A DNA stretch of 31,832 bases from Deinococcales bacterium (GCA_031414595.1 JANNVX010000006.1:1-31832), one strand, 5' to 3'. Positions 1 to 31,832 are shown, counted from the stretch's first letter. The notes: a model not told the origin generated them from the sequence alone. Numbers and translations: made by a program.

Positions 1-142
1 TTAGAGCGTGAAGTAAAGACTTGGGTTAAAGAGCGGAATAAGCGCTGTATAAAGATTAATTGGCAATTTTCGATCAAATCTGCTCGGACGAAATTTGCGG
101 ACAGGTATCCAAAGATTACTTCTTAATCCGACGCTGCACTAG
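1..142 (+). mobile_element. IS630-family element, 3' end (transposase C-terminus 1..126 plus right end)
   Basis: Frame +1 reads LEREVKTWVKERNKRCIKINWQFSIKSARTKFADRYPKITS* (TAA 124-126), matching the IS630 C-terminal W..ERN....NWQF....AR.K....YP pattern. Followed by ...ACGCTGCACTAG (131-142), ending in a CTAG/TA junction. Confidence 0.8.
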
Positions 143-214
143 GTTGCCCATGCCGCTTGTCCAGAAAGCTGTTCAAAAGCTAAAAATTTGTTGACGCAAC
201 TGTGGAGTGAGCAT
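141..214 (-). pseudogene. hsdM: Type I R-M methyltransferase (HsdM) N-terminal remnant with nonsense codon, truncated by the IS630 end
   Basis: RBS-like AAGGA then ATG at 214: MLTPQLRQQIFSF*TAFWTSGMGN. Aligns without gaps to the recalled HsdM start pattern M.T.EL...ID..W..FWSGG..NP; TGA at 175-173 sits at the conserved Trp. Confidence 0.6.
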
Positions 215-287
215 TATTTTATTTCCTTGCGGGTATTCACGCTGGGCAGTATATCAAAGGTTAGTAGCCGATACTGCTATTAGGTTG

Positions 288-791
288 CTATGACTCATTT
301 GGCGGAAAATCTTCGATAGCACCAGCACTCGCCCAGACATGCGTCTCGAGTTGAATCACTTCTAAGTTTCCAACCGCCTCGAGTGGATGAGCTTGGGTCG
401 TGATTATTGGGCATTGTAATTCTTGCGCTATGGCAAGGTATTCGGCATCACCCTGAACAGATGGTGTTTTGAATTGTTGCTGCATGGTCAAAATGTCGTC
501 GCTACTGATGATGTGGTACTCCCAATTTGATTCAAGAATGGCTCGAGCCAGTGCTTGGCAATCTTCAAAACTTGTGTATCCTTCTTGGTATGTTGCAAAG
601 GCTGCTTCAATGACTTGAGAATAGAATAACATCGGCACATGAAGTATTGCCCCGTGAAAAGCGGCGCGGCTCAGAAAAGCGTGACTGGCAAAGATAAGAC
701 TCTGCTCGTTGGCAACCAGTAGGTCTGGAGACAAAGAACCGTACAAAGCCACACTTGGCGTGACCACATAATTTCTGTAAATGTAACTCAT
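288..791 (-). CDS. Degenerate PIN-domain (VapC-like) protein
   Basis: VVTPSVAL near the N-terminus and GDAEYLAIAQELQCPIITTQ resemble PIN motifs (vvDaSv; DA.YlalA..l.cpliT.D), with two acidic positions substituted. Confidence 0.55.
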   Translation of the reverse strand: MSYIYRNYVVTPSVALYGSLSPDLLVANEQSLIFASHAFLSRAAFHGAILHVPMLFYSQVIEAAFATYQEGYTSFEDCQALARAILESNWEYHIISSDDILTMQQQFKTPSVQGDAEYLAIAQELQCPIITTQAHPLEAVGNLEVIQLETHVWASAGAIEDFPPNES

Positions 792-934
792 TTGGTTTCG
801 CGCAATCGGTTTAACAAATCACGAAGGTTTAGTTCGTTTGGTTTCAGAATTCGGATTGTGGGTCGTTGAATGCCCGTAAAAATCTTGGATTCTTTTTGGT
901 CTGGTCTTGGCTTTACTGGTTGTTGAGTGTTCAT
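788..934 (-). CDS. Small basic hypothetical protein (48 aa), possible partner of the PIN-like gene
   Basis: ATG at 934 is preceded by TAAACT 7 nt upstream; stop overlaps the next start (ATGA, 791-788). Confidence 0.5.
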   Translation of the reverse strand: MNTQQPVKPRPDQKESKIFTGIQRPTIRILKPNELNLRDLLNRLRETK

Positions 935-1052
935 AGTAAAAAGTTTAGCGAAATTATGTTTTTTTGGCAAGGTTTTGCAGCACAGGAAGTTTATATCCCT
1001 CTAAGTAGCCCAGACCACGACTGAACTGACTCGAGCAGCGTTAGAGTGTTCT

Positions 1053-2036
1053 ATGCAATATACACGCCTTGGGAATTCCGGTTTAAGTGTCTCCAAACTC
1101 TGCCTTGGGATGATGACCTACGGCGACCCACAGTTTCGTCCGTGGGCGCTTAATCTCGAGGCTTCCGAGCCGTTTGTGCGCCTTGCATTTGAAGCCGGAA
1201 TTAACTTTTTTGATACCGCCAATGCCTACTCGAGAGGAACGTCTGAAGAATACACAGGGATTTTGCTGAAAAAATTTGCCAAACGCGAAGAGTATGTGCT
1301 TGCCAGTAAAGTCTTTTTTGGGGTGGGCGATAGTGCTCCAAACCAGCAAGGTTTATCGAGAAAACATATTTTTGAAGCCGTGGATGCCAGTCTTAAGCGC
1401 CTTGGTACGGATTACTTAGACCTGTATCAGATTCATCGCTGGGACTACAACACGCCAATCGAGGAGACGATGCAGGCGCTTCATGACCTTGTGCGCTCTG
1501 GGCGAGTGCGGTATATCGGTGCAAGCAGTATGCACGCTTGGCAATTTGCCAAAGCCCAGCGCGTGGCAGAGCAGCACGGGCTAACCAAGTTTATTTCAAT
1601 GCAGAATCATTACAACCTGATTTACCGCGAAGAAGAACGCGAAATGATGCCGCAATGTGTGGACATGGGGGTTGGCGTGATTCCTTGGAGTCCACTGGCT
1701 CGAGGGATGCTGGCTGGAAACCGCAGCCAAGATGGGCAGAAGCTAACCAAACGCGCCGAAACCGATACGATAAGCGATGCACTCTATAATCACCCAAGCG
1801 ATTGGGCTGTGATTGAAAACTTAAATGCACTGGCGGAGGCTCGAGGCGTTCCAGCCGCCACCATTGCGCTGGCTTGGATGCTCAGTAAACCGTTTATCAG
1901 TGCGCCAATTATTGGGGCAAGTAAAATAAAACATCTCGAGGACGCACTGGCTGCCGTGGACTTCAAATTAACACCTGAAGAAATACAGCAACTCGAGGCA
2001 AATTACCAACCTCATGCGATTGCAGGGCATCAATGA
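1053..2036 (+). CDS. Aldo/keto reductase (YajO-like)
   Basis: LGNSGLSVSKLCLG, FFDTANAY, SLKRLGTDYLDLYQIHRWD, IPWSPLARG motifs. Confidence 0.95.
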   Translation: MQYTRLGNSGLSVSKLCLGMMTYGDPQFRPWALNLEASEPFVRLAFEAGINFFDTANAYSRGTSEEYTGILLKKFAKREEYVLASKVFFGVGDSAPNQQGLSRKHIFEAVDASLKRLGTDYLDLYQIHRWDYNTPIEETMQALHDLVRSGRVRYIGASSMHAWQFAKAQRVAEQHGLTKFISMQNHYNLIYREEEREMMPQCVDMGVGVIPWSPLARGMLAGNRSQDGQKLTKRAETDTISDALYNHPSDWAVIENLNALAEARGVPAATIALAWMLSKPFISAPIIGASKIKHLEDALAAVDFKLTPEEIQQLEANYQPHAIAGHQ

Positions 2037-2323
2037 AACTGCAACTCCGAACGTACACAATTAACAAAGGCGCACTTGCCGAGTGGATACAAGAATGGCG
2101 GACGCAGCTTGTGCCTCTGCGTCAAAAAATGGGTTTTGTGGTACTTGAGGCATACACCGTGCCAAGTTCTAATCAGTTTGTTTGGCTAATGGGCTTTGAA
2201 GGCGAACACTGGGAAAAGGCAGACCAAGCCTATTTTGACTCTGCCGAACGAAAAACCATGCAGCCAGACCCAGCGCGGTTAATTGCGAATATGGAAAATG
2301 TATTTATCTCTCGAGTGCATTAA
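2033..2323 (+). CDS. NIPSNAP family protein
   Basis: 96 aa, QLRTYTINKG..AEW start typical of NIPSNAP; ATGA overlap with upstream gene. Confidence 0.75.
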   Translation: MKLQLRTYTINKGALAEWIQEWRTQLVPLRQKMGFVVLEAYTVPSSNQFVWLMGFEGEHWEKADQAYFDSAERKTMQPDPARLIANMENVFISRVH

Positions 2324-2365
2324 CGGGAACGAAAATACTCTTCATGTCGTACACTAACCTCGAGT

Positions 2366-3799
2366 ATGACGACCTGCCCTTTTTGCGCCTCGAGTATCCA
2401 AGATAACAGCCTGAACTGTCCAGACTGTGGCGCAACCCTTGCGGGTTTGCAACTGGGGCTAGGCAAAATGCTGGGTAAATACAAACTCGAGCAAGTGCTA
2501 GGACAAGGCGGGTTTGGTATCACCTACCAAGCCCATGACCAATCCCTAAACCGCCAAGTGGCGATTAAAGAACTGTTCCCAGAGGACTGCACCCGCAATG
2601 GCAGTACCCTAATTCCAGCCTCGAGCCTAGGCGCAACTGGTTTTGCCCAAACCAAACAGCGTTTTCTCGAGGAAGCCCAAACACTGGCACAATTTAATCA
2701 TGGCGGTATCGTTAAAGTCTTTGAGGTTTTTGAAGCCAACAACACCGCCTATATTGTCATGGAAGCCTTGAATGGCGAAACCCTAGGGGCGCGAATCTCG
2801 AGAAATGGCAAATTACCGATAGACGAAGTTAAACGCATTGCCGAAGAAGTCTGTGCAGCCCTCGAGATTGTACATGGCACTGGTTTACTGCACCGTGACA
2901 TCAAACCAGACAACTTGTACATCACCAAAGATAACCGTGTGGTGCTGATAGATTTTGGCAGTGCCAGAGGATTCCAGACAGGGCTTGCGATGCGTCATAC
3001 CCAACTGGTAACGCCGGGTTATGCCGCCCCAGAGCAGTACGCCAGTCAAGCCAAATTCGGTACATACACCGATGTTTACGGTTTAAGTGCCACGCTGTAC
3101 CATGCTGTAACGGGGCAAATCCCACCGACTGCCAGTGACCGAATCATCTCGAGCAGCAGCGATTTACAAATGCCGAGTGGTTTGACTGAGCCATTGCGTA
3201 CCGCTTTGGCTCGAGGGTTGGCGTTACGAATAGACCAGCGCCCGCAAACCGTGAAAGAGTTTTTGTTGCTGTTTGGAACAATCATAAAACAAAAGCTATC
3301 CGCAAAAATTGTGTCTGCACCAAATGAAACCGTTGAGGAAATTATTTATCGCAAAGGTGAAATTTTGGTGACAAATAAATTCATTCAAGTACCTGCCGCA
3401 AAAGGAGGTCATTATCAGCATCTTCTATCGAATTTAAGTGAGATTCAAGTAACAAATCTCTGGAAAGAAGTTCGACCCAAAGATGGATTATCAATTACTG
3501 TACTGATTATTTTCGCAATGCTTTGTTTTAGCAGCACAGGCATATTTTTCTTCATACCAGAAAGACTATCTGGGTCACTTTTGTTTGCAATAATTGGTAT
3601 TTTGATTGGTGGTACAGCTATTGAACAAGCAATAAAGCTAAACAGAAGAAATGTATTTTACCTCTTTATTAAAACTCGCGAACACAGGTATTGGTATTTT
3701 TTTAAATCTGAACCAGTCATTATTGAAATTGCCACCTTTAAGGATAAACAAGAGGCGGATTCCATTGCAGAACGCATTCGCGCTTATTTAACACCTTAA
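2366..3799 (+). CDS. Hanks-type Ser/Thr protein kinase with N-terminal Zn ribbon and C-terminal membrane domain
   Basis: CPFC..CPDC; LGQGGFGITY, VAIKE, HRDIKPDN, DFG, GYAAPEQ; two hydrophobic helices near the C-terminus. Confidence 0.93.
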   Translation: MTTCPFCASSIQDNSLNCPDCGATLAGLQLGLGKMLGKYKLEQVLGQGGFGITYQAHDQSLNRQVAIKELFPEDCTRNGSTLIPASSLGATGFAQTKQRFLEEAQTLAQFNHGGIVKVFEVFEANNTAYIVMEALNGETLGARISRNGKLPIDEVKRIAEEVCAALEIVHGTGLLHRDIKPDNLYITKDNRVVLIDFGSARGFQTGLAMRHTQLVTPGYAAPEQYASQAKFGTYTDVYGLSATLYHAVTGQIPPTASDRIISSSSDLQMPSGLTEPLRTALARGLALRIDQRPQTVKEFLLLFGTIIKQKLSAKIVSAPNETVEEIIYRKGEILVTNKFIQVPAAKGGHYQHLLSNLSEIQVTNLWKEVRPKDGLSITVLIIFAMLCFSSTGIFFFIPERLSGSLLFAIIGILIGGTAIEQAIKLNRRNVFYLFIKTREHRYWYFFKSEPVIIEIATFKDKQEADSIAERIRAYLTP

Positions 3800-3812
3800 A
3801 TCACAACTCGAG

Positions 3813-4412
3813 TTAGAAATTGTTAATAACGTTTTGCAATGCCCCTAGCAGCAACTCGAGTTCGTTTAAGTAATAGCGCTCAGTGTCTATTTCTAAGGTG
3901 CTACCTTGGAGTTTCAGGAATTGCCAGATTTCACCGGTCGTCACACAACCATACACGGCGATTTGTGGTGTTTCTTTGCGGAGATTAAATTTCTGGGCTG
4001 CCAGCATTTGCGCCGCGCATTGCCCTAGCCCAGCTTCGATGTCTTGCTTTTTGGCTTCTATCAGTGCAAAAACAGGTGCGCTGACTATCGAGGCTTTGGG
4101 CTGCATGGTCAGTAAAAAATCGCATTCGCCCGATAAACCTGTTTCGGGTTCAACATCAAAGTATTGACCAGAAAACAAGGCAAAACGGTGCTGGTTTAGC
4201 TCGAGTATTTCGGTTAGGATTGGCGCAATAATAAATTCTGAACGGGCTTTTTCGCTTCTGGTCTTTAAGGCACTGTCACTCATGCGGTGCAGGGTTTCTT
4301 TAAGCCAACTCGAGACTGGCACTGCTTGTACATTACTTAGGATACTTGTGTCCAACGCCATAATCCCAAATTGGTCTTGGAGTTTTTCTAAGGTAAACGT
4401 TGTGTAAGCCAT
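3813..4412 (-). CDS. Conserved hypothetical protein, PD-(D/E)XK nuclease-like fold
   Basis: SEKARSEFIIAPIL, GECDFLL, IEAKK, GLGQCAAQM, YGCVTTGEIWQF pattern. Confidence 0.7.
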   Translation of the reverse strand: MAYTTFTLEKLQDQFGIMALDTSILSNVQAVPVSSWLKETLHRMSDSALKTRSEKARSEFIIAPILTEILELNQHRFALFSGQYFDVEPETGLSGECDFLLTMQPKASIVSAPVFALIEAKKQDIEAGLGQCAAQMLAAQKFNLRKETPQIAVYGCVTTGEIWQFLKLQGSTLEIDTERYYLNELELLLGALQNVINNF

Positions 4413-4559
4413 ACTTTTAGCCTAGCAGTTTTTTAGCCCAGCCGCGATACACTGCCAACAAATCCATTCTTTTTGAACCCAGTCTAAGCAACTCATGCAG
4501 TTTAGATTGTAGAATGAACCTGTGAAAGCGATTCTTCTACCCTCGAGAAGGAAATTCTT

Positions 4560-5486
4560 ATGACCCTCGAGCGTTTTTTTAGGCGGCGACCACCGCAACA
4601 AAAAGAAAATACGGTCAATGATGACTTGCCAGACTTGTGGGGAAAGTGTCCTAAGTGCAATGCACAGGTTTACAACAAAGAACTCGAGCAGAATTTACGG
4701 GTTTGTCCAAAGTGCAGCTATCATCACCGAATTCCAGTCAAGCGCCGTGTTGAAGGCTTGTTAGATGTTGGAACATTTCAAGTCACCAGTGGAAAAATTA
4801 GAGCCAAAGACCCACTTGAATTTGTGGATACCGATACTTATGTGGCAAAACTCGAGCGGGCGCGTAAAAAGACCGGACGTGAATCTGCAATTTATGCTGG
4901 GCGCGGCAGTTTGGCGGGTTTACCAATCATCATTTGTGTGATGGATTTTGAATTTGCTGGCGGCAGTATGGGCAGCAGCGAGGGCGAAGAGATTACAAGA
5001 GCCATTGAACTGGCGACCAAAGAAGACCGCAGCATGATTTTGGTGACGGCTTCGGGTGGCGCTCGAATGATGGAAGGGGCGTTAAGCCTGATGCAAATGG
5101 CAAAAACCACCTTTGCCCTCGAGCAACTAGCTGTTAAAGGCTTACCGTACATTACGATTTTGGCAGACCCAACCACAGGTGGGGTCGCTGCCAGTTTTGC
5201 CGCCATTGGAGACGTAATTATTGGCGAACCTGACGCGCTTATTGGTTTTGCTGGTCAACGGGTGATTGAACAAACCGTGCGCCAAAGCCTGCCAGACGGT
5301 TTCCAACGCTCCGAGTTTTACGAGAAAAAAGGCTTTATAGATATGGTTGTAGACAGACGGCAACACCGCGAAACCCTCGCCAATTTAATCGCAGGGCTAC
5401 GAAACCAACCCAAACCAGAAGTCACTGCCCTCGAGATAAAAGTGCCAGAACCGCCACGCACAGGGCTTTTTGGGAGACGAAAATGA
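4560..5486 (+). CDS. accD: Acetyl-CoA carboxylase carboxyltransferase beta subunit
   Basis: LWGKCPKC..CPKC Zn finger, GGSMGS, ASGGARMMEG, PTTGGVAASFA, IGFAGQRVIEQT. Confidence 0.97.
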   Translation: MTLERFFRRRPPQQKENTVNDDLPDLWGKCPKCNAQVYNKELEQNLRVCPKCSYHHRIPVKRRVEGLLDVGTFQVTSGKIRAKDPLEFVDTDTYVAKLERARKKTGRESAIYAGRGSLAGLPIIICVMDFEFAGGSMGSSEGEEITRAIELATKEDRSMILVTASGGARMMEGALSLMQMAKTTFALEQLAVKGLPYITILADPTTGGVAASFAAIGDVIIGEPDALIGFAGQRVIEQTVRQSLPDGFQRSEFYEKKGFIDMVVDRRQHRETLANLIAGLRNQPKPEVTALEIKVPEPPRTGLFGRRK

Positions 5487-5585: not shown

Positions 5586-6542
5586 ATGCCTGCACTTGAA
5601 TTTGAAAAACCGATTGTTGATTTAGAAACCCGCATCGAGGAATTAAAAACCTACGGCAGCAACAGCAATGTTGACATGACCGAGGAACTTGCCTTGCTCG
5701 AGAAGCGCTTGGAACGCTTACGCTCTGAGACTTACGACAAATTGACCCGTTGGCAAAGGGTGCAACTGGCTCGAGCGCCGGGTAGACCTACTGCACTAGA
5801 TTTTATCGGGCGTATTTTTACCGATTTTCAGGAACTGCATGGCGATAGGGCATACGGTGAGGATTCGGCTATCGTTGGTGGATTAGCGCGGCTCGAGGGT
5901 CAGGCAATTGTGTTGATTGCCCAACAAAAAGGACGCGACACCAAAGAAAACATTGCTCGGAATTTTGGTATGGCACACCCCGAGGGGTTTCGTAAAGCCA
6001 TGCGCTTAATGGACATGGCAGATAAATTTGGATTGCCTTTAATTACACTGGTGGACACGCCCGGCGCATACCCCGGAATTGCAGCCGAGGAACGCGGACA
6101 GGCATGGTTAATTGCCCAGAGCATTCAAAAAATGACGCGGCTTCGCGTTCCAGTGATTAGTGTCATCATCGGCGAAGGCGGAAGTGGTGGCGCTCTGGCG
6201 ATTGCTGTGGGCAACCGTGTGCTGATTCTCGAGAATGCAGTCTACAGCGTAATTTCGCCTGAATCTTGTGCTGCCATCGTCTGGCGCGATGCCAAAGAAG
6301 CGGCTAAAGCTGCCGAAGCACTGCGCTTAACCGCCAAAGACCTCGAGCAGTTTGCGATTGTGGATGAGGTCATACCCGAACCCAAAGGCGGAGCGCACAA
6401 CGACCCTGTTGGCTCAAGTGACGAACTGAAAAAAGCCTTGTTAAATCATCTCGAGCAGATGAAAGGCATGAGCCACATAGAATTACTGGATTCTCGAGCC
6501 GAGCGTTTCAGGAAACTTGGGGTCTTTGAAGAATTGGCTTAG
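5586..6542 (+). CDS. accA: Acetyl-CoA carboxylase carboxyltransferase alpha subunit
   Basis: GGAGG RBS at 5576-5580, ATG 5586; [40 protein letters not shown]. Confidence 0.97.
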
Positions 6543-15251: not shown

Positions 15252-15258
15252 AAACTGC

Positions 15259-15303
15259 AAGAAGAAACCCACTCGACAATTTAACTCGAGTGGGTTTCTT
15301 CTT
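15259..15303. terminator. Bidirectional intrinsic terminator between convergent genes
   Basis: 18-bp perfect stem AAGAAGAAACCCACTCGA / TCGAGTGGGTTTCTTCTT with 9-nt loop. Confidence 0.85.
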
Positions 15304-15816
15304 TTAAGCAAGGATTTTACGCGAGACTTCTTCTAATTCTTCTGGCGAACACGCCACAACCGCACTTAAACTCGAGGCAGCAATCGTACCTAACACACTC
15401 AAACCGTGCATACCGTTCAGACTTAAACTCGAGTGCCACGCTGCAAACTCCCCGCCGTGTTGGTACTCGAGACCAGTGCTGCTAACAGAACTTTGAGTCT
15501 CGAGACCAAGAGCTTCACCACTCGAGACGATACAATTCGCATCAAGGGCAATCACTATTTTAGGTCTGAGGAATCGCAGAGCGGCTTCTATCGGTGTGCT
15601 GTGGTTCTGCTCGAGTACCGCCAGTGTAATCCGACCCTTAAATGAATCTAAATTCTCGAGAATGCTTAAAACCTTTTGCCCATGCTCAAGCGGACAGAGC
15701 AAAAGCACGGTCTGCCAACCTGTGCTGCCCTCGAGATGAATAAAGGCAGTGCCAAAGGCATCAGTCCAACTTCTCGAGAAGGTTGGTTTCATACTGGGTG
15801 CAATCACAGGTTTCAT
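15304..15816 (-). CDS. Hypothetical protein
   Basis: 170-aa ORF coupled (ATGA overlap) to the upstream C26 gene and ending at the terminator; no recognised motif. Confidence 0.65.
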   Translation of the reverse strand: MKPVIAPSMKPTFSRSWTDAFGTAFIHLEGSTGWQTVLLLCPLEHGQKVLSILENLDSFKGRITLAVLEQNHSTPIEAALRFLRPKIVIALDANCIVSSGEALGLETQSSVSSTGLEYQHGGEFAAWHSSLSLNGMHGLSVLGTIAASSLSAVVACSPEELEEVSRKILA

Positions 15817-16523
15817 GCTGGAATTTTTTCTAGCATACCCATGAAAGCTCTAAACGGCGCGAGGTGTTCAGGGTGGGCTTCCCAAAGTAATTCGGGATGC
15901 CACTGTACTGCCAGCACACCATCGCCTTCGATGCCCTCTACAAGACCATCTGGGGCATATGCCGAGACCGATAATCCGGGCGCGACATCCTTTATTCCCA
16001 TGTGATGGTACGAATTGACCCGCAGCGTTTCCACACCATGGGCTTTTGAAAGGCGCGTACCACCAACCACTCGCACCCGATGCCCAAGTACGGGCGGGGT
16101 GGCAGTTTGGCGATGGTCTGCCCAAAGTCCGTTCGATGTTGGAATGTGCTGATGCAACGTACCGCCTTCGGCAACGTTGATGAGTTGAAAACCACGACAG
16201 ATTCCCATGATTGGTTTTTTGGTCTCTCGAGCCAAGGTGTATAACTCGAGTTCAAAGGCATCACGCAGCGCATCCACTTCGCCAAGCCCAGCTTCGTGGT
16301 CTGCCCCCCAGATTTCGGGGTCTGGGTCAACCCCACCCGAGAACAAAACACCATTCAGAGCCTCGAGTTGCATAGCCGCCGTTCCAACCAGACTGGGCAG
16401 CATGACTGGAAGCCCTCCCACAGCCAAAATCGCGGCTGAATAAGCAAGCGCAGTCCCACTCCAAGCCCGTTGTAAACTCGAGTCCTTAGAACTAGAGACC
16501 GTAATTCCAATTCGTGGTTTCAT
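15813..16523 (-). CDS. Gamma-glutamyl-gamma-aminobutyrate hydrolase family (peptidase C26, class I glutamine amidotransferase)
   Basis: KPRIGIT, FSGGVD, GICRGFQLINVAEGGTLHQ, VNSYHH, AVQWHPE. Start 16523 (or 16529); TAGGAT lies 7 nt upstream of 16523. Confidence 0.92.
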   Translation of the reverse strand: MKPRIGITVSSSKDSSLQRAWSGTALAYSAAILAVGGLPVMLPSLVGTAAMQLEALNGVLFSGGVDPDPEIWGADHEAGLGEVDALRDAFELELYTLARETKKPIMGICRGFQLINVAEGGTLHQHIPTSNGLWADHRQTATPPVLGHRVRVVGGTRLSKAHGVETLRVNSYHHMGIKDVAPGLSVSAYAPDGLVEGIEGDGVLAVQWHPELLWEAHPEHLAPFRAFMGMLEKIPA

Positions 16524-16543
16524 TCGCATAATCCTAACACGCC

Positions 16544-16572
16544 TTGACAAATGTGCCGTGCATTTGTATATT
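16544..16572 (+). promoter_or_regulatory. Sigma70-type promoter of tRNA-Leu
   Basis: TTGACA (16544-16549), 17-nt spacer, TATATT (16567-16572). Confidence 0.8.
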
Positions 16573-16585
16573 CTCTTCCGCCCTC

Positions 16586-16672
<87 letters not shown>

Positions 16673-16673
16673 C

Positions 16674-16706
16674 AAGAAGCGCTTCTTAATAGGGAGCGCT
16701 TTTTTG
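16674..16706 (+). terminator. Intrinsic terminator after tRNA
   Basis: AAGCGCTTC...GGAGCGCTT stem followed by a T-run. Confidence 0.75.
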
Positions 16707-16727
16707 ATTTTTTGGGTACAATGATGT

Positions 16728-17651
16728 ATGTCATTCTCCGAGCATCGGTTTTCGTTCGCTGGTAAAAAAGTTCTGGATTTTGCAGATAAACTCTTTGATA
16801 CAGATAAATTTGCTTTCCGAGTGCGGGTAGAATACGAAGAAACCCCAACTTGGCTCGAGAAGTTCAATACCCTTTTAGAACAAGAAAATGCTGCCAATCT
16901 CGAGGCGTTGGTGATTGGCGCTTGGTCGGATGAACAATTTGAAGATGGCTCGGAGCAAGTGGTCGAAGCACTGGTGGCAGCCAAAGACACCTTAACCAGT
17001 CTTAAAGCCATTTTTCTGGGCGATATTGCCGGCGAGGAATGCGAAGTTTCATGGATTCATCAGTCTGATATTTCGCCGATTTTTCTGGCTTACCCTGCGC
17101 TTGAGGTCTTTGCAGTTCGTGGCTCGGAAAACCTACAATTTGGTCATGTTTCGCATCAGCATTTGCGGCACTTAACCATTCAAACAGGTGGGATGGATGT
17201 TGCTATTTTGCGAGACGTTCTGGGGTCTGAATTCCCAAATCTCGAGCATCTGGACTTGTACCTAGGCACAGATAATTATGGTGCAAACACTGCCATAGAC
17301 GACTTTGCACCTTTACTGCGTGGCGAATTATTTCCAAAATTAGTGTACTTAGGACTTCGCAACTCTGACCTGACCGATGCGCTGGCTGGGGTCTTGGTCA
17401 ATGCCCCGATTTTAGAGCGAATCAAAACACTAGATTTATCGCTTGGCACGCTATCCGATGAAGGTGCAAAAATCTTCTCGAGTGCCGAGAAACTAGGCAC
17501 TCTCGAGAAATTAGACATCCATTATCATTACGTTGGCGAGGAAGCCTTGAAAGAATTAAAAGCCCATTTGCGGAAACTTAAGATAAAAATTGATGCCGCC
17601 GATGCCCAAGACCCAAATGAAGATTGGCGCAGTCCACAAATCGGTGAATGA
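16728..17651 (+). CDS. STM4015-family leucine-rich-repeat protein
   Basis: ALVIGAW, LKAIFLGDI..EECEVSWIHQSD, FPNLEHLDLYLG...YG, LDLSLGTLSDEGA; LxxLxL repeats. Confidence 0.8.
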   Translation: MSFSEHRFSFAGKKVLDFADKLFDTDKFAFRVRVEYEETPTWLEKFNTLLEQENAANLEALVIGAWSDEQFEDGSEQVVEALVAAKDTLTSLKAIFLGDIAGEECEVSWIHQSDISPIFLAYPALEVFAVRGSENLQFGHVSHQHLRHLTIQTGGMDVAILRDVLGSEFPNLEHLDLYLGTDNYGANTAIDDFAPLLRGELFPKLVYLGLRNSDLTDALAGVLVNAPILERIKTLDLSLGTLSDEGAKIFSSAEKLGTLEKLDIHYHYVGEEALKELKAHLRKLKIKIDAADAQDPNEDWRSPQIGE

Positions 17652-18771
17652 TCTCCTTGTTATTGCCCCGCCCGAAAGTCGTCGCGTTCGCGCTTTGCAA
17701 AACAGTTTACTCGAGGCTGGACTACCTCCTGCTCGAGTGTTGTCTTGGCTCGAGGTGCTAAATGGCGAACCACTCGAGAAACACATTTTTCCAAACACCA
17801 TCATCAAACTCGATTCGCCTTCTGAGGATTGGGAAACAGACAAAGCCCTGCTTGCCCTTGGCGAACTTCAACCCGACCCAGACCGTGAGTACGCTCGAGT
17901 CAATCCTGAGAATCTCGAGTATGACCTTGGGGCAATTCTGTCCTCGAGACAATGGTATTTGGGGTTTTGCACCGCCCTCGAGAATGTAAGCACCCAACTG
18001 ACGCAGCTTGGGAGACATGCCATGAATCATCCAACGGATATTGCTTTAATGTTTGATAAACGTTCTACTCACGCTAAACTCGAGAAGGCTGGAATTCTTG
18101 TACCGCCAGCTTTACCGCCAGTTCAGAATTTCGATGAGTTGTTTGAACAGATGCAGCGCTTAAATTGGAATCGGGTTTTTATCAAACTCGCGCATGGTTC
18201 TGGGGCGGCTGGGGTAATTGCCCTCGAGAACCACAAAGGAAATTGGCAAGCCACCAGCACGGTAGAAATGGCAAGTGGTGGGCGGTTGTACAACACCAAG
18301 CGCCTTTGGAAGTACCGTAACTTGGAACAAATCAAGGCGCTGGTCAATGTCATTTGCTCACAGCGTGTGCATGTCGAGAAATGGCTGTCCAAAGCCAGTT
18401 TTGAAGATAAAATTTTTGATTTACGGGTCGTGGTGATTGCTGGAATTGCCAAGCATGTGCTGGTGCGCTCCTCGAGTGGCACAGTCACCAATTTGCACCT
18501 TGGCAATGAGCGCGGTAATTGGGACGGGGTACGTGAAAAACTTGGCGAAACTTGGCTCGAGATTAAAAGCACTTGCGAGCAGTGCATGGGTTTATTCCCC
18601 AATAGTCTTTATGCTGGGGTGGATGCGCTGGTGCAAACCGATTGGCAACACCACGCCATTCTCGAGATGAATGCTTTTGGCGATTACCACCGCAATGTTT
18701 TTGTGGATGATTTAGACACCTATCAAACCCAATTTGAGGCTTGTAATAGAATAGGGGTATCCGATGCTTAA
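17644..18771 (+). CDS. STM4014-family ATP-grasp protein
   Basis: Probable GTG start at 17644 overlapping the upstream stop; MFDKR, FIKLAHGSGAAGV, FDLRVVVIAG, TNLHLGN, AGVDAL, LEMNAFGD. Confidence 0.8.
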   Translation: MNDLLVIAPPESRRVRALQNSLLEAGLPPARVLSWLEVLNGEPLEKHIFPNTIIKLDSPSEDWETDKALLALGELQPDPDREYARVNPENLEYDLGAILSSRQWYLGFCTALENVSTQLTQLGRHAMNHPTDIALMFDKRSTHAKLEKAGILVPPALPPVQNFDELFEQMQRLNWNRVFIKLAHGSGAAGVIALENHKGNWQATSTVEMASGGRLYNTKRLWKYRNLEQIKALVNVICSQRVHVEKWLSKASFEDKIFDLRVVVIAGIAKHVLVRSSSGTVTNLHLGNERGNWDGVREKLGETWLEIKSTCEQCMGLFPNSLYAGVDALVQTDWQHHAILEMNAFGDYHRNVFVDDLDTYQTQFEACNRIGVSDA

Positions 18772-19570
18772 CGCCAATCATTACATTCCCCATAAGGACA
18801 TACTTTTTATCACCTTAGACAGCCTTCGTTACGATGTGGCAGTCCAAACCCTCCAAGCTGGGCGCACCCCTAATTTGGCTCGAGTCTTGCCAAACAGTGC
18901 GTGGGAACTGCGCCACACCCCAGCGACCTTTACCTTTGCAGCGCACCAAGCATTTTTTGCCGGCTTTTTGCCGACTCCTGCCACAACTGGGCGGCACTCG
19001 AGGTTGTTTGCGGCAAAATTTGAGGGTTCTAAAACCACGTCCGAGACGACTTTTGTCTACTCAGAAAGCACTTGGCTCGAGGCGCTTAAAAACCTTGGGT
19101 ATCATACGTTTTGTATCGGTGGAGTGGGTTTTTTTCGTGGTACGGGCGGTTTGAGTTCGGTTTTACCAGATTATTTTGAGCATTCGTTTTTCTCGCACAG
19201 CATGGGTGTGACCAGTCCACGCAGCACAGAAAAACAAGTAACTCGAGCCGTCAATCTGCTGCATCAAATTCCAGATTCTGAGCGGGTCTTGTTGTTCGTT
19301 AATGTTTCGGCAACCCACACGCCCACGCGGATATTTCTGCCAAGCGCGCCCCAAGACTCGCTCGAGACCCAAGCCGCTGCCTTAGCTTATGCCGATTTGC
19401 ACCTTGGTAAACTCTTTGAAGTCTTTGAATCAAGGGGCGGGTCATTGTGCATTATTTGTGCTGACCACGGTGAGGCATTTGGCGAAGATGGTTTTTATGG
19501 GCATCGTTTAGCCCACGAAACCGTTTGGAATGTCCCCTATGTCGAATTTTTTCTCGAGGGAATAACATGA
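18764..19570 (+). CDS. STM4013/SEN3800-family hydrolase (alkaline phosphatase/sulfatase fold)
   Basis: LFITLDSLRYD, TFTFAAH, NVSATH, ADHGEAFGEDGFYGH. Confidence 0.82.
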   Translation: MLNANHYIPHKDILFITLDSLRYDVAVQTLQAGRTPNLARVLPNSAWELRHTPATFTFAAHQAFFAGFLPTPATTGRHSRLFAAKFEGSKTTSETTFVYSESTWLEALKNLGYHTFCIGGVGFFRGTGGLSSVLPDYFEHSFFSHSMGVTSPRSTEKQVTRAVNLLHQIPDSERVLLFVNVSATHTPTRIFLPSAPQDSLETQAAALAYADLHLGKLFEVFESRGGSLCIICADHGEAFGEDGFYGHRLAHETVWNVPYVEFFLEGIT

Positions 19571-20874
19571 ATCTCGAGGCGGTTCTAACGGGTAGCCCGT
19601 ATATTTCTTACACCTACGCCTATCCGCATAAAACTGCCTACCGTGCCATAAAACCCGTGCCACTCGAGCAAGTTTGGCTAAACGAACCTCGAGCCGCATT
19701 TTTATACATTCATGTGCCGTTCTGCGAGATGCGTTGTGGTTTTTGTAATTTGTTTACAACTGTCAATCCAGATGCCAGTCTCGAGGCTGGGTTTTTAAGT
19801 GCCTTAGAACGTCAAGCTAAAGTGGTGCGTGATGCTTTAGCAAATAAAACCGTCACTCGAGCCGCGCTAGGTGGTGGTACACCGACTTTTCTTGTGCCGT
19901 CTGAACTCGAGCGGGTGCTTAAAATTCTCGAGATGTTTAACGTCAGCAACCAAACGCCGCTCAGCGTCGAGACTTCACCGCAAACCGCAACTTTGGATCG
20001 GCTCGAGTTGCTGTCAAATTTTGGGATTGACCGAATCAGTATTGGTGTGCAGAGCTTTGTGGAGTCCGAAGCTCGAGCAGTTGGGCGCTCACAGCGTTCA
20101 AGCGAGGTTCTTGAGGCGTTGGAGCGCATTAAAGCCCAAGATTTTCCAACCCTGAACTTAGATTTAATCTATGGTTTACCGAATCAAACCCGTGAATCGT
20201 GGCTCGAGTCGCTAAAAACAGCTTTGCAATTTGCACCACAAGAACTTTTTTTGTACCCGTTGTATGTGCGCCCTTTGACTGGTTTGGGCAAACTCGAGCA
20301 GAGTTGGGATGATACACGCCTCGAGTTGTACCGTGTGGCTCGGGATTTTTTACTTCAATCTGGGTATGAACAGCATTCGATGCGGGTTTTTAGACGATTG
20401 GATGCGCCATCTCGGGAGGCTGGCATTGCTTTTGATGCCCAAGCCGACGGCTTAATTGGTCTTGGTGTAGGGGCGCGTTCGTACACCCAAAATCTGCATT
20501 ACTCGAGCGAATACGCGGTTGGGCAGGTTGGGGTCAAGGAAATTATTGCTGATTATGCGTTGCGTTCTGAATCCGATTTTGCTTTTGCCTCGCATGGTTT
20601 TTATTTGGATGGTTTAGAACAGCGTCGCAGATTTATCCTGCAAGATATTTTTAATGTTGTGGGTTTCTCGAGAAGTGCATATCAGCAGCATTTTTCTTCG
20701 GATGCGTTAGCTGATTTCCCGATTTTTACGGGTTTACAGGGGCTTGGTTTGATTGCCATTTCCCCAGACCAAATTCATTTGACCAAAATAGGACTTGAAC
20801 GTAGCGATGCGATTGGGCATTTGTTCTACTCGAGCCAAGTTCAGCAAGTAGCCGAGGATTACCAGTGGCGCTGA
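19567..20874 (+). CDS. STM4012-family HemN-like radical SAM protein
   Basis: Start ATG 19567 (ATGA overlap); YTYAYPHKTAY, LYIHVPFCEMRCGFC, GGGTPT, RISIGVQSF, NLDLIYGLPNQT. Confidence 0.87.
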   Translation: MNLEAVLTGSPYISYTYAYPHKTAYRAIKPVPLEQVWLNEPRAAFLYIHVPFCEMRCGFCNLFTTVNPDASLEAGFLSALERQAKVVRDALANKTVTRAALGGGTPTFLVPSELERVLKILEMFNVSNQTPLSVETSPQTATLDRLELLSNFGIDRISIGVQSFVESEARAVGRSQRSSEVLEALERIKAQDFPTLNLDLIYGLPNQTRESWLESLKTALQFAPQELFLYPLYVRPLTGLGKLEQSWDDTRLELYRVARDFLLQSGYEQHSMRVFRRLDAPSREAGIAFDAQADGLIGLGVGARSYTQNLHYSSEYAVGQVGVKEIIADYALRSESDFAFASHGFYLDGLEQRRRFILQDIFNVVGFSRSAYQQHFSSDALADFPIFTGLQGLGLIAISPDQIHLTKIGLERSDAIGHLFYSSQVQQVAEDYQWR

Positions 20875-21734
20875 GTGTTTTGTACCGTGGATTTTTAAGC
20901 AGTTGCAATTATGCCTGTGCTTATTGCCCGTTTGCCAAGCACACCGAATCTAGGTTTGAACATTTGCGCGATGCTGCCGCCCTCGAGAAATTTGCAACTT
21001 GGGTAGAAACTCGGGGCAAACCGACCAGTGTATTTTTTACGCCTTGGGGTGAGGCGTTAATCCGTACTCGGTATCAAAAAGCAGTACAGCATTTATCAAA
21101 TTTAGCGCATCTCGAGAAAGTGGTGGTACAAACCAATGGCTCGTGGGGTTTGCGCTGGCTAGAACAGGTTAATCTCGAGAAATTGGCGCTGTGGATAACC
21201 TTTCATCCATCGGAAACCAGCTTAGAAAAATTTGCGACTCGAGCCAAAGAACTTATTCGCCTTGGGGTACGTTTTAGTGTTGGGGCGGTGGGTATCCGCG
21301 AAAATCTTGTATTGCTCGAGCGTTTACGAGAAGCTATCCCACCCGAAATTTACTTCTGGATAAACGCTTTTGACCGCCGAGGACACGATTACTACAATTC
21401 AGACACACTCGAGCGCTTAACCAAAATAGACCCATACTTTGCCCTCAATCTCGAGCGCTACAAATCTCGAGGACAAGCCTGTAGTGCGGGTCATACGGTG
21501 ATTAGTGTGGATGGTTTTGGCATGGCGCGGCGTTGCCATTTTATTGAAACGCCAATTGGCAGTATTTACACGCCAGACTTTGAAGAAAAACTTTTGCCTA
21601 AAGCCTGTTCTCGCAGTTTTTGCGATTGTCATATTGGCTATGTGCATCTCGAGAAATTGGGCTTACAAGAGGTATTCGCAGGTGGCATTCTCGAGCGAAT
21701 ACCTAGCCAATGGAATAAAAACATCCTCACCTGA
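20865..21734 (+). CDS. STM4011-family radical SAM protein with C-terminal Cys cluster
   Basis: LYRGFLSSCNYACAYCPFAK, FFTPWGEAL, QTNGS; CSAG..RCHF..CSRSFCDCHIG (SPASM/twitch-like). Confidence 0.85.
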   Translation: MALSVLYRGFLSSCNYACAYCPFAKHTESRFEHLRDAAALEKFATWVETRGKPTSVFFTPWGEALIRTRYQKAVQHLSNLAHLEKVVVQTNGSWGLRWLEQVNLEKLALWITFHPSETSLEKFATRAKELIRLGVRFSVGAVGIRENLVLLERLREAIPPEIYFWINAFDRRGHDYYNSDTLERLTKIDPYFALNLERYKSRGQACSAGHTVISVDGFGMARRCHFIETPIGSIYTPDFEEKLLPKACSRSFCDCHIGYVHLEKLGLQEVFAGGILERIPSQWNKNILT

Positions 21735-24480: not shown

Positions 24481-24513
24481 AAAAATCCCCCCGAGTTGTT
24501 CTCGAGGGGATTT
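24481..24513 (-). terminator. Intrinsic terminator of the SLH gene
   Basis: AAATCCCCCCGAG-TTGTT-CTCGAGGGGATTT imperfect stem with an A-run on the left. Confidence 0.75.
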
Positions 24514-28950: not shown

Positions 28951-30594
28951 ATGAAAACCACAACCAAAAAAAATGATTGGCTCATCAGTCATTACAAAAA
29001 AGCCATAGAAAAATTCCCAGAACGCCAATTTCTGTTCTCCACCATGAGCGGTATTAGCCCCGAACCAGTTTATACACTCGAGGATGCCCCACCCGAACTC
29101 GAGATGCCGGGACAGTACCCGTTTACCCGTGGGACACAAGCCAGCATGTACCGCGCCAAACTCTGGACGATGCGGATGTTCGCGGGCTTTGGCAGTGCCG
29201 AACAGACCAATCAGCGTTTTCATCAGTTGCTCCAAGCTGGGCAGACGGGCTTAAGTACGGCTTTTGATTTACCAACCCTGATGGGTTATGACGCTGACCA
29301 TCCGTTTAGTGTCGGTGAAGTCGGTAAGTGCGGTGTGGCGGTCTCGAGCCTAGCCGATATGGAAATTTTATTCCAAGGCATTGATTTAGAAAAAGTCACC
29401 ACCAGCATGACGATTAACTCGCCAGCCAGTGCAATTTGGGCAATGTACTTGGCAAATGCCCAAAAACAAGGTTTTAGGCTCGAGAACTTGGGTGGCACAA
29501 TCCAGAATGATATTCTAAAAGAATTTATTGCCCAAAAAGAATTTATTTTCCCGCCCGAAGCAAGTGTCAAATTGGTAATTGATACTTTTGAATGGTCGCC
29601 GATACACACCCCAAAATGGAATTTTATCAGTGTTTCGGGCTATCACATCCGTGAGGCTGGCAGCACTGGTGTGCAAGAACTGGCGTTTACTCTGGCAGAT
29701 GGTTTTCATTACGTCGAAGAGGCATTAAAACGCGGTTTGGACATTGATGAATTTGCGCCGAGAATTAGTTTTTTCTGGGATGTTCACAACGATTTTTTTG
29801 AAGAAATTGCCAAGTTCCGTGCCGCAAGACGAATCTGGGCAACCCAAATGCGTGAACGTTACGGCGCAAGAAACCCAAAGTCTTGGATGTTACGCACCCA
29901 CGCCCAAACGGCTGGTGTAAGCCTGACGGCGCAACAGCCACACAATAATATTGCTCGGGTAGCGATTCAGGCTCTGGCGGCGGTACTTGGCGGTACACAG
30001 AGTCTGCATACCGATTCTTTTGATGAAGCACTGGCATTACCCACCGAAGAAGCCGCCACCATTGCGCTGCGAACGCAACAGATTATTGCTTATGAGACTG
30101 GTGTAGCAAACGTTGTGGACCCGTTAGCTGGCAGTTATTTTGTCGAGCATTTAACAAGCGATATGGAAACTCAAGCGCTTGCCTACATCGAGCGTATCCG
30201 CAACCTTGGCGGTGTGGTCAAGGCACTAGAGGCTGGTTTTTTTGCCACCGAAATAGGCGATGCCAGTTATCAATTTCAGCGTGAGTTAGATTCTAAAAAA
30301 CGAATTATTGTCGGGGTCAATGAATTTACCGATAATCAACGCGCCAGTGTCCCGATTCAATTGGTAGATAAAAATGTAGAAATTATTCAAGCTAAACGCC
30401 TCGAGCAAGTGCGGCGTGAACGCGACCCGATTCGGCACAAAGCTGCTTTAGAGCAGTTACGAACAGCCGCCGTTCAAGGGCTTAACACCATGCCAGCTTT
30501 TCTCGAGTGCGCCCATGCTTACGCAACGCTCGGCGAGCAAATGGATGTGCTACGCGGCGTGTATGGGGTGTACCAAGAACCGGTGATGATTTAG
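28951..30594 (+). CDS. icmA: B12-dependent acyl-CoA mutase large subunit, probably isobutyryl-CoA mutase
   Basis: [56 protein letters not shown]; no B12-binding DxHxxG domain. Phe/Gln specificity residues instead of Tyr/Arg. Confidence 0.8.
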
Positions 30595-30614
30595 GCTCGA
30601 GCCAAACAGTCAAA

Positions 30615-30628
30615 GCTCAGGCTCGAGC
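30615..30628 (+). repeat. 14-bp direct repeat, left copy
   Basis: GCTCAGGCTCGAGC, identical to 31518-31531. Confidence 0.85.
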
Positions 30629-30657
30629 TTGACAAATTTTTAATGCAACGATAATGT
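30629..30657 (+). promoter_or_regulatory. Promoter giving a probable leaderless mRNA
   Basis: TTGACA (30629-30634), 17-nt spacer, TAATGT (30652-30657), ATG 6 nt later; no SD. Confidence 0.65.
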
Positions 30658-30663
30658 TCTATT

Positions 30664-31107
30664 ATGATTCCAGCATTTGACCAAAATGGCAACCTTCTTG
30701 CTGGAGAACACGACCTTGATTGGCAAGAATTTACACAACACTTTGCTTGGAATACAAAACGAGCTACGCTCATTGGTGGTCTACAAGCTGCCTTGATTGC
30801 CCTACATAATTGTGGTTGTCCGACTGCTTGGATAGATGGCAGTTTCGCTACAAATAAGCCAAATCCAAACGACATTGACGTAGCTTGGGATGATGACCAA
30901 ACAGACTTTCAATTGCTACAACAAATCGAACCCACACTCCTAGAATTTAGTCATCGCCGTGCTGCTCAAAAACGCAAATTTGGCTGTGAATGCTTTCCTG
31001 CCACATGGGAAGCTGACGCGAATGGCACAACTTTTCTCGAGTATTTCAAAAAAGACCGCAACGGCAACCCAAAAGGCATCATCCGAATTTCACTCAGTAC
31101 CATCTAA
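30664..31107 (+). CDS. DUF6932-like putative nucleotidyltransferase (toxin-antitoxin-like)
   Basis: MIPAF..NGNL..GEH; WIDGSFATNKPNPNDIDV (Pol-beta GS..DxD); PKGII end. Confidence 0.78.
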   Translation: MIPAFDQNGNLLAGEHDLDWQEFTQHFAWNTKRATLIGGLQAALIALHNCGCPTAWIDGSFATNKPNPNDIDVAWDDDQTDFQLLQQIEPTLLEFSHRRAAQKRKFGCECFPATWEADANGTTFLEYFKKDRNGNPKGIIRISLSTI

Positions 31108-31119
31108 AGAGGTGAACCC

Positions 31120-31509
31120 ATGATTCATAACGAAAAACAATTCAAAATTACCAAAGGCAACCTTGAGAAATTCCAAAATAGTTTACAACAACTCAGCGCT
31201 CAGAACGACTCGAGCTTAAAAAGCCAAACCCGAATAAAAGCCGTGCAAAGCGAAATCGAGGATTTAGAAGCACAATTGCTCGAGTACCAAAACTTACGGC
31301 ACTCAGGGAATATTAATGTACCCCTAGCAACCTTAGAAAACCTAGCCGAAGAACTGATAAAAGCCAGAATTGCCAAGGGATTAACCCAAGCAGCCCTCGC
31401 CAAGCAACTCGGTATGAAAAGCCAAATGATTCAAAGATACGAAACCACAAATTACGCAGGGGCAAGTCTAGCAAGGGTTCTCGAGGTAGCGCGGGTACTG
31501 CAAAAATAG
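31120..31509 (+). CDS. XRE-family HTH transcriptional regulator
   Basis: GAGGTGA RBS; MIHNEKQF N-terminal coiled coil; LIKARIAKGLTQAALAKQLG...IQRYE. The TAG stop reads at 31507-31509. Confidence 0.88.
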   Translation: MIHNEKQFKITKGNLEKFQNSLQQLSAQNDSSLKSQTRIKAVQSEIEDLEAQLLEYQNLRHSGNINVPLATLENLAEELIKARIAKGLTQAALAKQLGMKSQMIQRYETTNYAGASLARVLEVARVLQK

Positions 31510-31517
31510 AGCAAACC

Positions 31518-31531
31518 GCTCAGGCTCGAGC
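31518..31531 (+). repeat. 14-bp direct repeat, right copy
   Basis: GCTCAGGCTCGAGC, identical to 30615-30628. Confidence 0.85.
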
Positions 31532-31569
31532 AAACTCTTTCAGTGCAACTTAAAGACACAAGCAGTCAG

Positions 31570-31631
31570 CCCCTCACCCGACTCGCTTAGGCTCGTTACC
31601 CTCTCCCAAAATCGCTTCGCTGGGAGAGGGT
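31570..31631. repeat. CCCTCACCC / CCCTCTCCC...GGGAGAGGG palindromic repeat
   Basis: 11-bp stem ACCCTCTCCCA (31598-31608) / TGGGAGAGGGT (31621-31631), preceded by CCCCTCACCC. Confidence 0.7.
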
Positions 31632-31695
31632 TGGTGGTGGCTTTTGACTTTTGAACCCCTCCTTTGAGGCGCGAATAGCCCGCTAGGTGCTGTCT

Positions 31696-31832
31696 TATAC
31701 CAACTTTAGGTAGATAATAAGGAATGTCAAGATTAGGCACACCTCTAACCGCCCACCATACGACTGAAGAACTCGAGAAACACTACAAACAGTGCAAAGA
31801 TGCCAAAGAAAAAACTCGTCGCCAAGTGATAT
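31696..31832 (+). mobile_element. IS630-family element, 5' end (transposase N-terminus from 31724, truncated by window edge)
   Basis: AAGGA RBS then MSRLGTPLTAHHTTEELEKHYKQCKDAKEKTRRQVI, resembling IS630 winged-HTH starts; possible left end TA|TACCAA at 31696. Confidence 0.65.

Follow-up and report, generated by a model that had tools for sequence, protein, structure and literature searches.

CTCGAG, a highly iterated palindrome in a clade of Deinococcota

The highly iterated palindrome (HIP) HIP1, treated so far as a peculiarity of cyanobacteria, has posed the question of its function for three decades. Among other iterated words of bacterial genomes, the uptake signal sequences (USS) of Pasteurellaceae and the DNA uptake sequences (DUS) of Neisseriaceae are asymmetric words of 9 to 12 nt that favour certain flanks, occur about once per kb and are read by the competence machinery. 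Very-short-patch repair by Dcm/Vsr raises CCWGG in enterobacteria, an effect that is small and depletes the T-containing neighbour, and the repetitive extragenic palindromes and bacterial interspersed mosaic elements (REP/BIME) as well as the miniature inverted-repeat transposable elements (MITEs) measure 20 to 150 bp, are intergenic and possess conserved flanks. In the excerpts of the papers on which we draw here and below, HIP1 (GCGATCGC) is described as 15- to 300-fold over-represented in cyanobacteria (PMC5861425) with a periodicity of 18 to 94 kb (Xu et al. 2018, PMC5861425), HIP sites are given as roughly 1 per kb, and the most over-represented 6-mer in 97 cyanobacterial genomes is an alternate HIP, GGCGCC of Calothrix PCC 7103 (Elhai, PMC4390886). 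Here we analysed a stretch of 31,832 bp from a Deinococcales bacterium (JANNVX010000006.1:1-31832; guanine-cytosine (GC) content 0.479), called the window throughout, in which the hexamer CTCGAG is grossly in excess. We find that CTCGAG is a genuine highly iterated palindrome of a clade within the Deinococcota, which comprises the window organism and the species represented by two related loci, L001 and L002.

Abundance, reading frames and neighbour words of CTCGAG

Searching the window for CTCGAG returns exactly 188 sites, about one per 170 bp, in agreement with the manual count of about 188 in a preliminary description of this DNA. Base composition predicts 7.1 sites, a first-order Markov model with the CTCGAG sites masked predicts 2.4, and 100 shuffles that preserve dinucleotides contain 3.89 on average and 11 at the most, so that none of them reaches 188. 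The excess across expectation models is 26- to 78-fold, which upholds the strong over-representation claimed in the preliminary description and makes its figure of about 24-fold a conservative one. CTCGAG is the top hexamer of the window, 3-fold above the others, and ranks 2 to 9 are occupied by hexamers that overlap it. The fourth-order Markov model that had been proposed beforehand as a control predicts 162.7 sites and a third-order model 54.5. We rejected both controls as circular, since the sub-word counts on which they build are nearly all CTCGAG itself: 188 of 196 CTCGA, 188 of 210 TCGAG and 188 of 253 TCGA lie within the sites, and beyond these TCGA occurs 65 times with 65 expected.

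We chose 24 coding sequences (CDS) of the window from its list of open reading frames (ORFs) together with Pfam. Wholly inside one CDS lie 173 of the 188 sites and 15 lie outside; the density is 6.0 per kb for coding and 4.7 for non-coding DNA. None of the 24 CDS, on either strand, lacks a site, and their densities run from 2.3 to 17.5 per kb. The 173 coding sites divide into 110 in the frame CTC-GAG, 26 in nCT-CGA-G and 37 in nnC-TCG-AG. Shuffling synonymous codons within genes (500 shuffles), a conservative control in which the motif itself inflates the codon pool, yields a mean of 18.9 and a maximum of 31 sites, and shuffling codon order a mean of 8.1 and a maximum of 20, compared with 174 observed, the codon analyses counting one more coding site that lies in the overlap of two CDS. 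For the two frames that do not encode Leu-Glu, the 63 coding sites compare with about 4.5 in the shuffles, and in strictly non-coding DNA (3042 hexamer positions) 15 sites are found where 0.55 are expected. The statements of the preliminary description that the motif occurs in all three frames and in genes of both orientations, and that simple codon or dipeptide bias does not account for it, are therefore borne out.

The Leu-Glu dipeptide itself is encountered 177 times in the predicted proteins compared with 66.7 expected (2.65 times), and 110 of these 177 pairs are encoded as CTCGAG. Of the 190 CTC codons in the window, 111 fall within CTCGAG sites; away from the sites CTC is the rarest leucine codon (79 of 912) and GAG the minor glutamate codon (126 compared with 388 GAA). 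The reverse dipeptide Glu-Leu is found 66 times with 66.7 expected, and Leu-Asp, Ile-Glu and Val-Glu are likewise not enriched. Since CTC and GAG are otherwise minor codons, yet most Leu-Glu pairs are written as CTCGAG and Glu-Leu is not enriched, the direction of the effect is from the DNA motif to the Leu-Glu excess and not the reverse. Pressure on the DNA has thus raised one dipeptide to over twice its expected number in the proteins examined.

We further counted the 18 words that deviate from CTCGAG at a single position. Together they occur 89 times, compared with 69 expected from the masked first-order model or 130.7 from base composition, and in non-coding DNA 11 times with 10.7 expected. 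Under the masked model the neighbours that deamination generates (T/A) show no depletion in the window: CTTGAG/CTCAAG is found 18 times with 12.2 expected and TTCGAG/CTCGAA 9 times with 8.8 expected. No position within CTCGAG is privileged, with 30 deviations at positions 1/6 (20.1 expected), 29 at positions 2/5 (24.2) and 30 at positions 3/4 (25.1).

From the ratio of enrichments, gains outweigh losses by a factor of e^3.3 to e^3.7; we put the gain-to-loss ratio at about 30 to 80 and the population-scaled bias S at about 3.3 to 3.7. We explored such biases in a substitution model of 4096 states with uniform rates, a deliberate simplification. A bias confined to a single position, as for Vsr, has a ceiling of 3.1-fold at any strength and empties the neighbour concerned, whereas favouring all steps into the site and disfavouring those out of it 8.8-fold yields a 76-fold excess with neighbours at 0.98 of their background. 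A single-base repair bias is disfavoured because its ceiling lies far below the 26- to 78-fold excess and the neighbours stand at about 1. Since the whole-site model reproduces both the excess and the neighbours at background, it indicates that the complete hexamer is read as a unit, its carriers being better transmitted than those of every one-off variant. The preliminary description had proposed that a CTCGAG-directed process shapes this genome and had offered methylation coupled to repair as one option; some such process in the lineage is supported, and the neighbour spectrum and the model speak against that option in the form of a single-base repair bias. Taken together, a real, clade-wide fixation bias for the whole CTCGAG site is very probable.

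What is enriched is the hexamer alone. Its flanks show no consensus in base counts from -8 to +8, and among the 7-, 8- and 10-mers of the window there is no longer motif or second repeat, no 10-mer being present more than 10 times. The sites are dispersed singly, outside any longer repeat or tandem array, and their spacing is near-exponential (coefficient of variation (CV) 1.05; Kolmogorov-Smirnov (KS) test against the exponential, p 0.17). The shortest distances deviate from this: the minimum from start to start is 10 bp in the window as in L001 and L002, and in the three pooled, gaps of 6 to 9 bp are absent where 9.8 would be expected (P 5.6e-5) and gaps of 6 to 15 bp number 7 where 24.1 would be, the distribution being near-random beyond 15 bp. 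This shortage of close sites could reflect a protein footprint or a saturating benefit.

Related loci, site turnover and comparison with described systems

The best relatives of the methylmalonyl-CoA mutase encoded in the window are found in two metagenome-assembled genomes (MAGs) named "Deinococcales bacterium", L001 (91%; assembly JAAFJQ01) and L002 (85%), the latter being part of a 5.09-Mb chromosome (OZ252252.1), and the next ones, at 72 to 75%, in Deinococcus, Thermaceae and Trueperaceae. A tree of 12 mutases unites the window, L001 and L002 in a clade with 100/100 support. The placement in the Deinococcota assumed in the preliminary description is correct. Window and relatives together cover about 73 kb of clade sequence, with about 20 kb per relative; ORFs in the relatives' loci were taken as the longest non-overlapping ones of at least 100 aa, which makes the non-coding counts there approximate. 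Since synteny with L001 and L002 is limited to the mutase gene, their flanks are independent samples of related genomes. When the 24 window proteins were compared by tblastn with all 80 loci, no further close orthologue came up. In both loci, as in the window, the sites exceed the shuffles in all three frames, populate non-coding DNA and coincide with an excess of Leu-Glu (Table 1). The enrichment is hence not local to the window, as the preliminary description had allowed it might be; loss of the enrichment under codon control and its confinement to the Leu-Glu frame, the two other outcomes named there as speaking against the proposal, were looked for as well, and the opposite was found each time.

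Outside this clade the distribution within the Deinococcota is patchy. CTCGAG is the top hexamer in L001, L002 and also in L006, a Meiothermus MAG with weaker enrichment (36/1/8 sites in the three phases compared with 12.1/0.1/1.4 in shuffles), and a Trueperaceae MAG, L007, is weakly enriched as well (19/9/7 compared with 10.6/1.5/1.2). In L004, L009, L010, L011, L024, L035, L057 and L078 the counts are near the level set by codon usage. No CTCGAG at all is present in 14.0 kb of Deinococcus frigens (L003) and 21.6 kb of D. murrayi (L005), where 1.6 to 16 would be expected depending on the model, as if a restriction system of XhoI type were or had been at work there. The strong clade, the weak Thermaceae and Trueperaceae MAGs and the two Deinococcus loci with zero sites provide natural contrasts, and sequences of the strong clade, with one site per 170 bp, could be told apart clearly when metagenomes are binned.

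Turnover and conservation of sites were studied in a codon alignment of the mutase gene with 15 distinct clade sites and nine outgroups. Window and L001 share 81% nucleotide identity in this gene and 4 of their 6 and 12 sites, respectively, so that CTCGAG turns over fast in this one gene. The alignment contains no indels at CTCGAG sites, the sites having arisen by substitution, and several of them are non-synonymous relative to a conserved outgroup state: at column 499, Leu-Ala in 8 of 9 outgroups is Leu-Glu in the window, at column 56, Leu-Gly in 7 of 9 is Leu-Glu in the clade, and in a further instance Ile-Glu became Leu-Glu. The 15 clade sites have a mean outgroup entropy of 0.888 compared with 0.545 for all columns (permutation p 0.008). 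As judged from these orthologues, the sites were made by ordinary point substitutions and not by insertion of an element, under a pressure that is strong enough to rewrite proteins and is filtered by protein constraint, since the sites occupy residues of low conservation. Sites are fewer in genes with signs of recent acquisition, with 2.7 per kb in the HEC-01B gene of the window (GC 0.385) and 2.4 per kb in a restriction-modification pair of L001 compared with 7.1 for the L001 locus.

Set against the described systems, CTCGAG shares with HIP1 and the alternate HIPs that it is a short GC-containing palindrome in gross excess, dispersed through all frames and non-coding DNA and lineage-wide. Four features of this class are found, namely a top-word excess, frame independence, single dispersed sites and an excess common to relatives, so that the likeness to HIP1 drawn in the preliminary description is sound, including its point that neither codon nor dipeptide bias suffices. 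CTCGAG differs in being another word in another phylum, in its density of about 6 per kb, roughly six-fold above that given for HIP sites in the excerpt from Elhai, and in its one-off deviations, which are evenly spread, compared with the end-biased deviations described for HIP1 (PMC4390886). Like USS and DUS, which number thousands per genome, it is present in many copies in all frames with the encoded peptide about doubled, and its placement at poorly conserved residues and its scarcity in recently acquired genes parallel what is reported in part of PMC2817400; as a bare 6-bp palindrome without flank consensus, it is not an asymmetric word of 9 to 12 nt. The likeness to Dcm/Vsr would lie in a methyltransferase site raised by a repair activity tied to it, as is the case for Dcm/Vsr. 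The size of the CTCGAG excess and neighbours at background, the T/A neighbours included, set it apart from that system. With REP/BIME and MITEs it has in common that numerous palindromes are dispersed in the genome, and it differs from them in that the great majority of sites lie in CDS and have no conserved flanks. A search of the open-access literature and bioRxiv found no earlier description of CTCGAG as over-represented, nor of any HIP in the Deinococcota. CTCGAG gives an independent example from a different phylum, at a still higher density, and gene families that co-occur with the motif in both phyla are candidates for the mechanism.

A proposed explanation and its rivals

Point substitutions create the sites, and a transmission advantage of the whole hexamer, acting in all reading frames and in non-coding DNA, keeps them at about 6 per kb. 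As an explanation we propose that sites would accumulate wherever proteins tolerate them and that the advantage would be conferred by a protein recognising the whole palindrome, in the simplest case a dimeric methyltransferase of the XhoI/PaeR7I class or a partner that binds the (methylated) site, and it would arise in the uptake or recombination of kin DNA. Fragments or genome copies richer in sites would be taken up or recombined more often, and the sites would spread by molecular drive, an argument made earlier for the uptake sequences of Haemophilus and Neisseria and of late for HIP1 too. Deinococcus and Thermus are naturally transformable and polyploid. According to the excerpts consulted, uptake sequences about double the encoded tripeptides, sit at poorly conserved residues and are scarcer in newly gained genes (PMC2817400), transformation is raised by methylated HIP1 (bioRxiv 10.1101/2024.09.10.611283), an uptake role for HIP1 has been put forward and the presence of genes correlated with HIP1 under phylogenetic correction (PMC13756078), and polyploidy has been remarked upon for HIP-bearing cyanobacteria (Elhai, PMC4390886). 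Since CTCGAG matches the signatures of uptake sequences in the doubled peptide, the poorly conserved residues and the smaller number of sites in new genes, we favour a "self tag" resembling HIPs and uptake sequences, to which we accord an even chance. That the tag would spread by uptake or recombination drive with a methyltransferase-type reader is somewhat less likely than not. In its fullest form, a probably polyploid and transformable clade of Deinococcota would tag its DNA every ~170 bp with (methylated) CTCGAG, a dimeric reader covering about one helical turn would act in uptake or in recombination between genome copies, CTCGAG would be the first HIP outside cyanobacteria, and HIP1, uptake sequences and CTCGAG would be convergent means of recognising kin DNA; this is a speculative picture, and doubtful in its entirety. 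If the tag reading is true, the cost borne for it is the rewriting of about one Leu-Glu per 90 codons, and the patchy counts, from weak enrichment in the Meiothermus and Trueperaceae MAGs to none in two Deinococcus species, would mirror where the reader gene was gained or lost.

Several points weigh against the self tag and its spread by drive. Pfam scans for a methyltransferase or Vsr covered 25 window ORFs and subsequently 33 of the 35 ORFs of L001 and L002 along with 5 window ORFs, leaving aside the two mutase ORFs and the 16 ORFs of L006; they detected no methyltransferase among the window ORFs, and no CTCGAG-reading protein was identified in the window or the scanned ORFs of L001 and L002. 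The clade sample is small at about 73 kb, and the evidence on turnover and conservation comes from a single gene with 15 distinct sites. Coding constraint, unequal mutation rates and base composition enter neither the estimate of S nor the substitution model. To our knowledge, DNA uptake in Thermus is not sequence-specific, and known uptake sequences are asymmetric and longer, unlike a 6-bp palindrome. Drive alone leaves the lack of sites less than 10 bp apart unexplained. Finally, a selected binding function leaves an equilibrium signature equal to that of drive, and the data do not separate the two.

This last point leads to the rival in which CTCGAG serves a chromosomal function, being bound by an abundant nucleoid, repair, segregation or replication factor, with selection acting on site density along the chromosome, as has been suggested for HIP1 because of its periodicity, and not on DNA exchange. 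The whole-site advantage and the background neighbours suit it as well as they suit drive, the trait holds across a GC range of 0.48 to 0.61, and part of the work of Xu et al. argues for selection on the distribution of HIP1 (PMC5861425). The missing close sites, which fit a footprint or a saturating benefit, slightly favour it. The close-to-random spacing beyond 15 bp and the fast turnover of individual sites speak against this function, as does the absence of a candidate protein in the window and the scanned ORFs of L001 and L002, and we regard it as unlikely. Mismatch repair biased by methylation is improbable in our view; in this scheme, modelled on Elhai's proposal for HIP1 and on Dcm/Vsr for CCWGG, a methyltransferase together with Vsr-like or methyl-directed repair would convert near-cognates to CTCGAG. 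In its favour there is the analogy that the HIPs of cyanobacteria co-occur with a cognate methyltransferase, as stated in the excerpt from PMC4390886, and the avoidance of other palindromes described below shows heavy restriction-modification traffic. The undepleted deamination neighbours, the deviations spread over positions instead of being concentrated, and the low ceiling and emptied neighbour of the single-position model run counter to it; the small counts per neighbour leave room for a correction acting at all positions.

The two remaining rivals are refuted. That the excess follows from composition or from a preference for certain codons, codon pairs or dipeptides, for instance Leu-Glu written as CTC-GAG, might be suspected from the majority of coding sites in the Leu-Glu frame and from the GC-rich relatives L004, L010, L024 and L057, whose counts are about those given by codon usage. 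For the window, L001 and L002 it is contradicted by the sites in the other frames and in non-coding DNA, by the shuffles, by CTC and GAG being minor codons elsewhere and by the unenriched dipeptides of related composition, and is very improbable. The chance that the sites are an artefact, be it an assembly error, contamination by linkers or adaptors, or a short mobile repeat in decay, is negligible, given that they lie in frame within conserved genes such as the mutase, 91% identical to that of L001, recur in three independent assemblies, and show the signature of a bare hexamer with neither flank consensus, nor a halo of degenerate copies, nor indels at orthologous positions.

Features of the window and restriction context

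The positions of the sites and of other features are compiled in Table 1. The intergenic sites at 1030, 3807 and 11032 named in the preliminary description are all on the non-coding list, and folding confirmed the two sites it had placed in stems. In the hairpin between the convergent genes, the site (15285-15290) is located in the 3′ arm, the 5′ arm carrying the one-off variant CTCGAC; the z-score is -9.05, and none of 200 shuffles folds equally well. For the terminator-like hairpin with the second site, a 71-nt stretch folds with -30.1 kcal/mol.

Table 1. Positions and properties of CTCGAG sites, of other features of the window and of the related loci
Feature	Position	Strand	Details
CTCGAG sites	first 345-350, last 31772-31777		mean spacing 168 bp
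Non-coding CTCGAG sites (15)	1030, 2310, 2359, 3807, 4542, 11032, 15285, 24147, 24423, 24501, 28566, 30596, 30622, 31525, 31772		
Non-coding site	1030..1035		18 bp upstream of aldo/keto reductase start
PD-(D/E)xK protein	3813-4412	-	199 aa; match to PADLOC CRISPR-associated PD_DExK model only, E 7.9e-52
Candidate defence pair	6539-8349	-	HEC-01A (AAA_21 ATPase, E 5.5e-128), HEC-01B (DUF4276, E 5.8e-72)
ExeM/NucH-family extracellular endonuclease	11334-15251	+	1305 aa; Big_2 and lamin-tail domains
Strong hairpin	15257..15306	+	between convergent genes 11334-15251 (+) and 15304-15816 (-); -29.8 kcal/mol
Densest stretch	15304..21734		62 sites in 6431 bp (9.6 per kb) vs 126 in the other 25401 bp (5.0 per kb)
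tRNA-Leu, anticodon GAG	16586..16672	+	reads CUC/CUU; context, not part of the motif
Terminator-like hairpin with T run	24483..24513	-	site 24501-24506 in stem; 13 pairs, loop 5
Methylmalonyl-CoA mutase	28951..30594	+	6 sites in window, 12 in L001; 4 positions common
DUF6932 protein, then HTH_3 protein	30664-31509	+	DUF6932: PADLOC PDC-M63A, E 1.2e-21
L001	19.7 kb		140 sites (7.1 per kb); GC 0.489; phases 78/21/23 vs shuffled 11.5/2.1/1.5; non-coding 7.4 per kb; Leu-Glu 114 vs 49 expected
L002	21.6 kb		91 sites (4.2 per kb); GC 0.606; phases 38/19/12 vs shuffled 9.7/0.7/1.7; non-coding 6.4 per kb; Leu-Glu 68 vs 33 expected

Palindromes other than CTCGAG are avoided. GGCC is absent from the window (133 expected) and occurs once in L001 (77 expected), and CCGG (27 compared with 95) and GATC (15 compared with 63) are scarce in the window. 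The other 63 palindromic hexamers total 158 there compared with 475 expected, and once CTCGAG is masked, 30 of the 64 possible ones do not occur at all, compared with 28 in the unmasked count. This avoidance points to heavy restriction pressure in the lineage, against which the excess of CTCGAG stands out all the more. The sole methyltransferase in the scanned L001 and L002 ORFs belongs to a pair in L001 (15686-17747) in which a C5 cytosine methyltransferase and an NgoBV-family restriction endonuclease overlap tail to tail. GGNNCC, which we take to be the recognition site of the NgoBV-type enzyme, is avoided in L001 (4 compared with 70) as in the window (6 compared with 105). We rejected this methyltransferase as the CTCGAG enzyme, there being no link between the two and GGNNCC being unrelated to CTCGAG. 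Also in L001, the gene for the alpha subunit of DNA polymerase III (22-4938) contains an intein with a LAGLIDADG domain.

The PD-(D/E)xK protein of the window was likewise considered as a CTCGAG factor and set aside, as nothing ties it to the motif. It has no notable sequence match in Pfam, NCBIfam or PDB, its neighbours in the Atlas are unnamed clusters commonest in cyanobacteria, and a single-sequence AlphaFold model reached a predicted local distance difference test (pLDDT) value of 37.5, too low to be of use. A megablast search of plasmid and phage collections with positions 1-25000 of the window gave no match. The HEC-01 pair, with a GC content of 0.385 to 0.399, looks like an acquired island, and the DUF6932 and HTH_3 genes may form a toxin-antitoxin or defence pair. 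Should the lineage take up DNA, the extracellular endonuclease would merit attention as a secreted DNase.

The density of sites per gene is heterogeneous (chi-square p 0.0035) and correlates with the product of leucine and glutamate content (rho 0.50). The densest stretch encodes an unknown 170-aa protein, a Peptidase_C26 protein, an STM4015-family protein, an ATP-grasp protein, a sulfatase-like protein and two radical SAM proteins, and is possibly a cluster for peptide modification or natural-product synthesis. Within it, the tRNA-Leu gene overlaps the GTG start assigned to the CDS at 15813-16613; this assigned start is probably wrong, and the ORF at 16613-17011 (-) is probably spurious.

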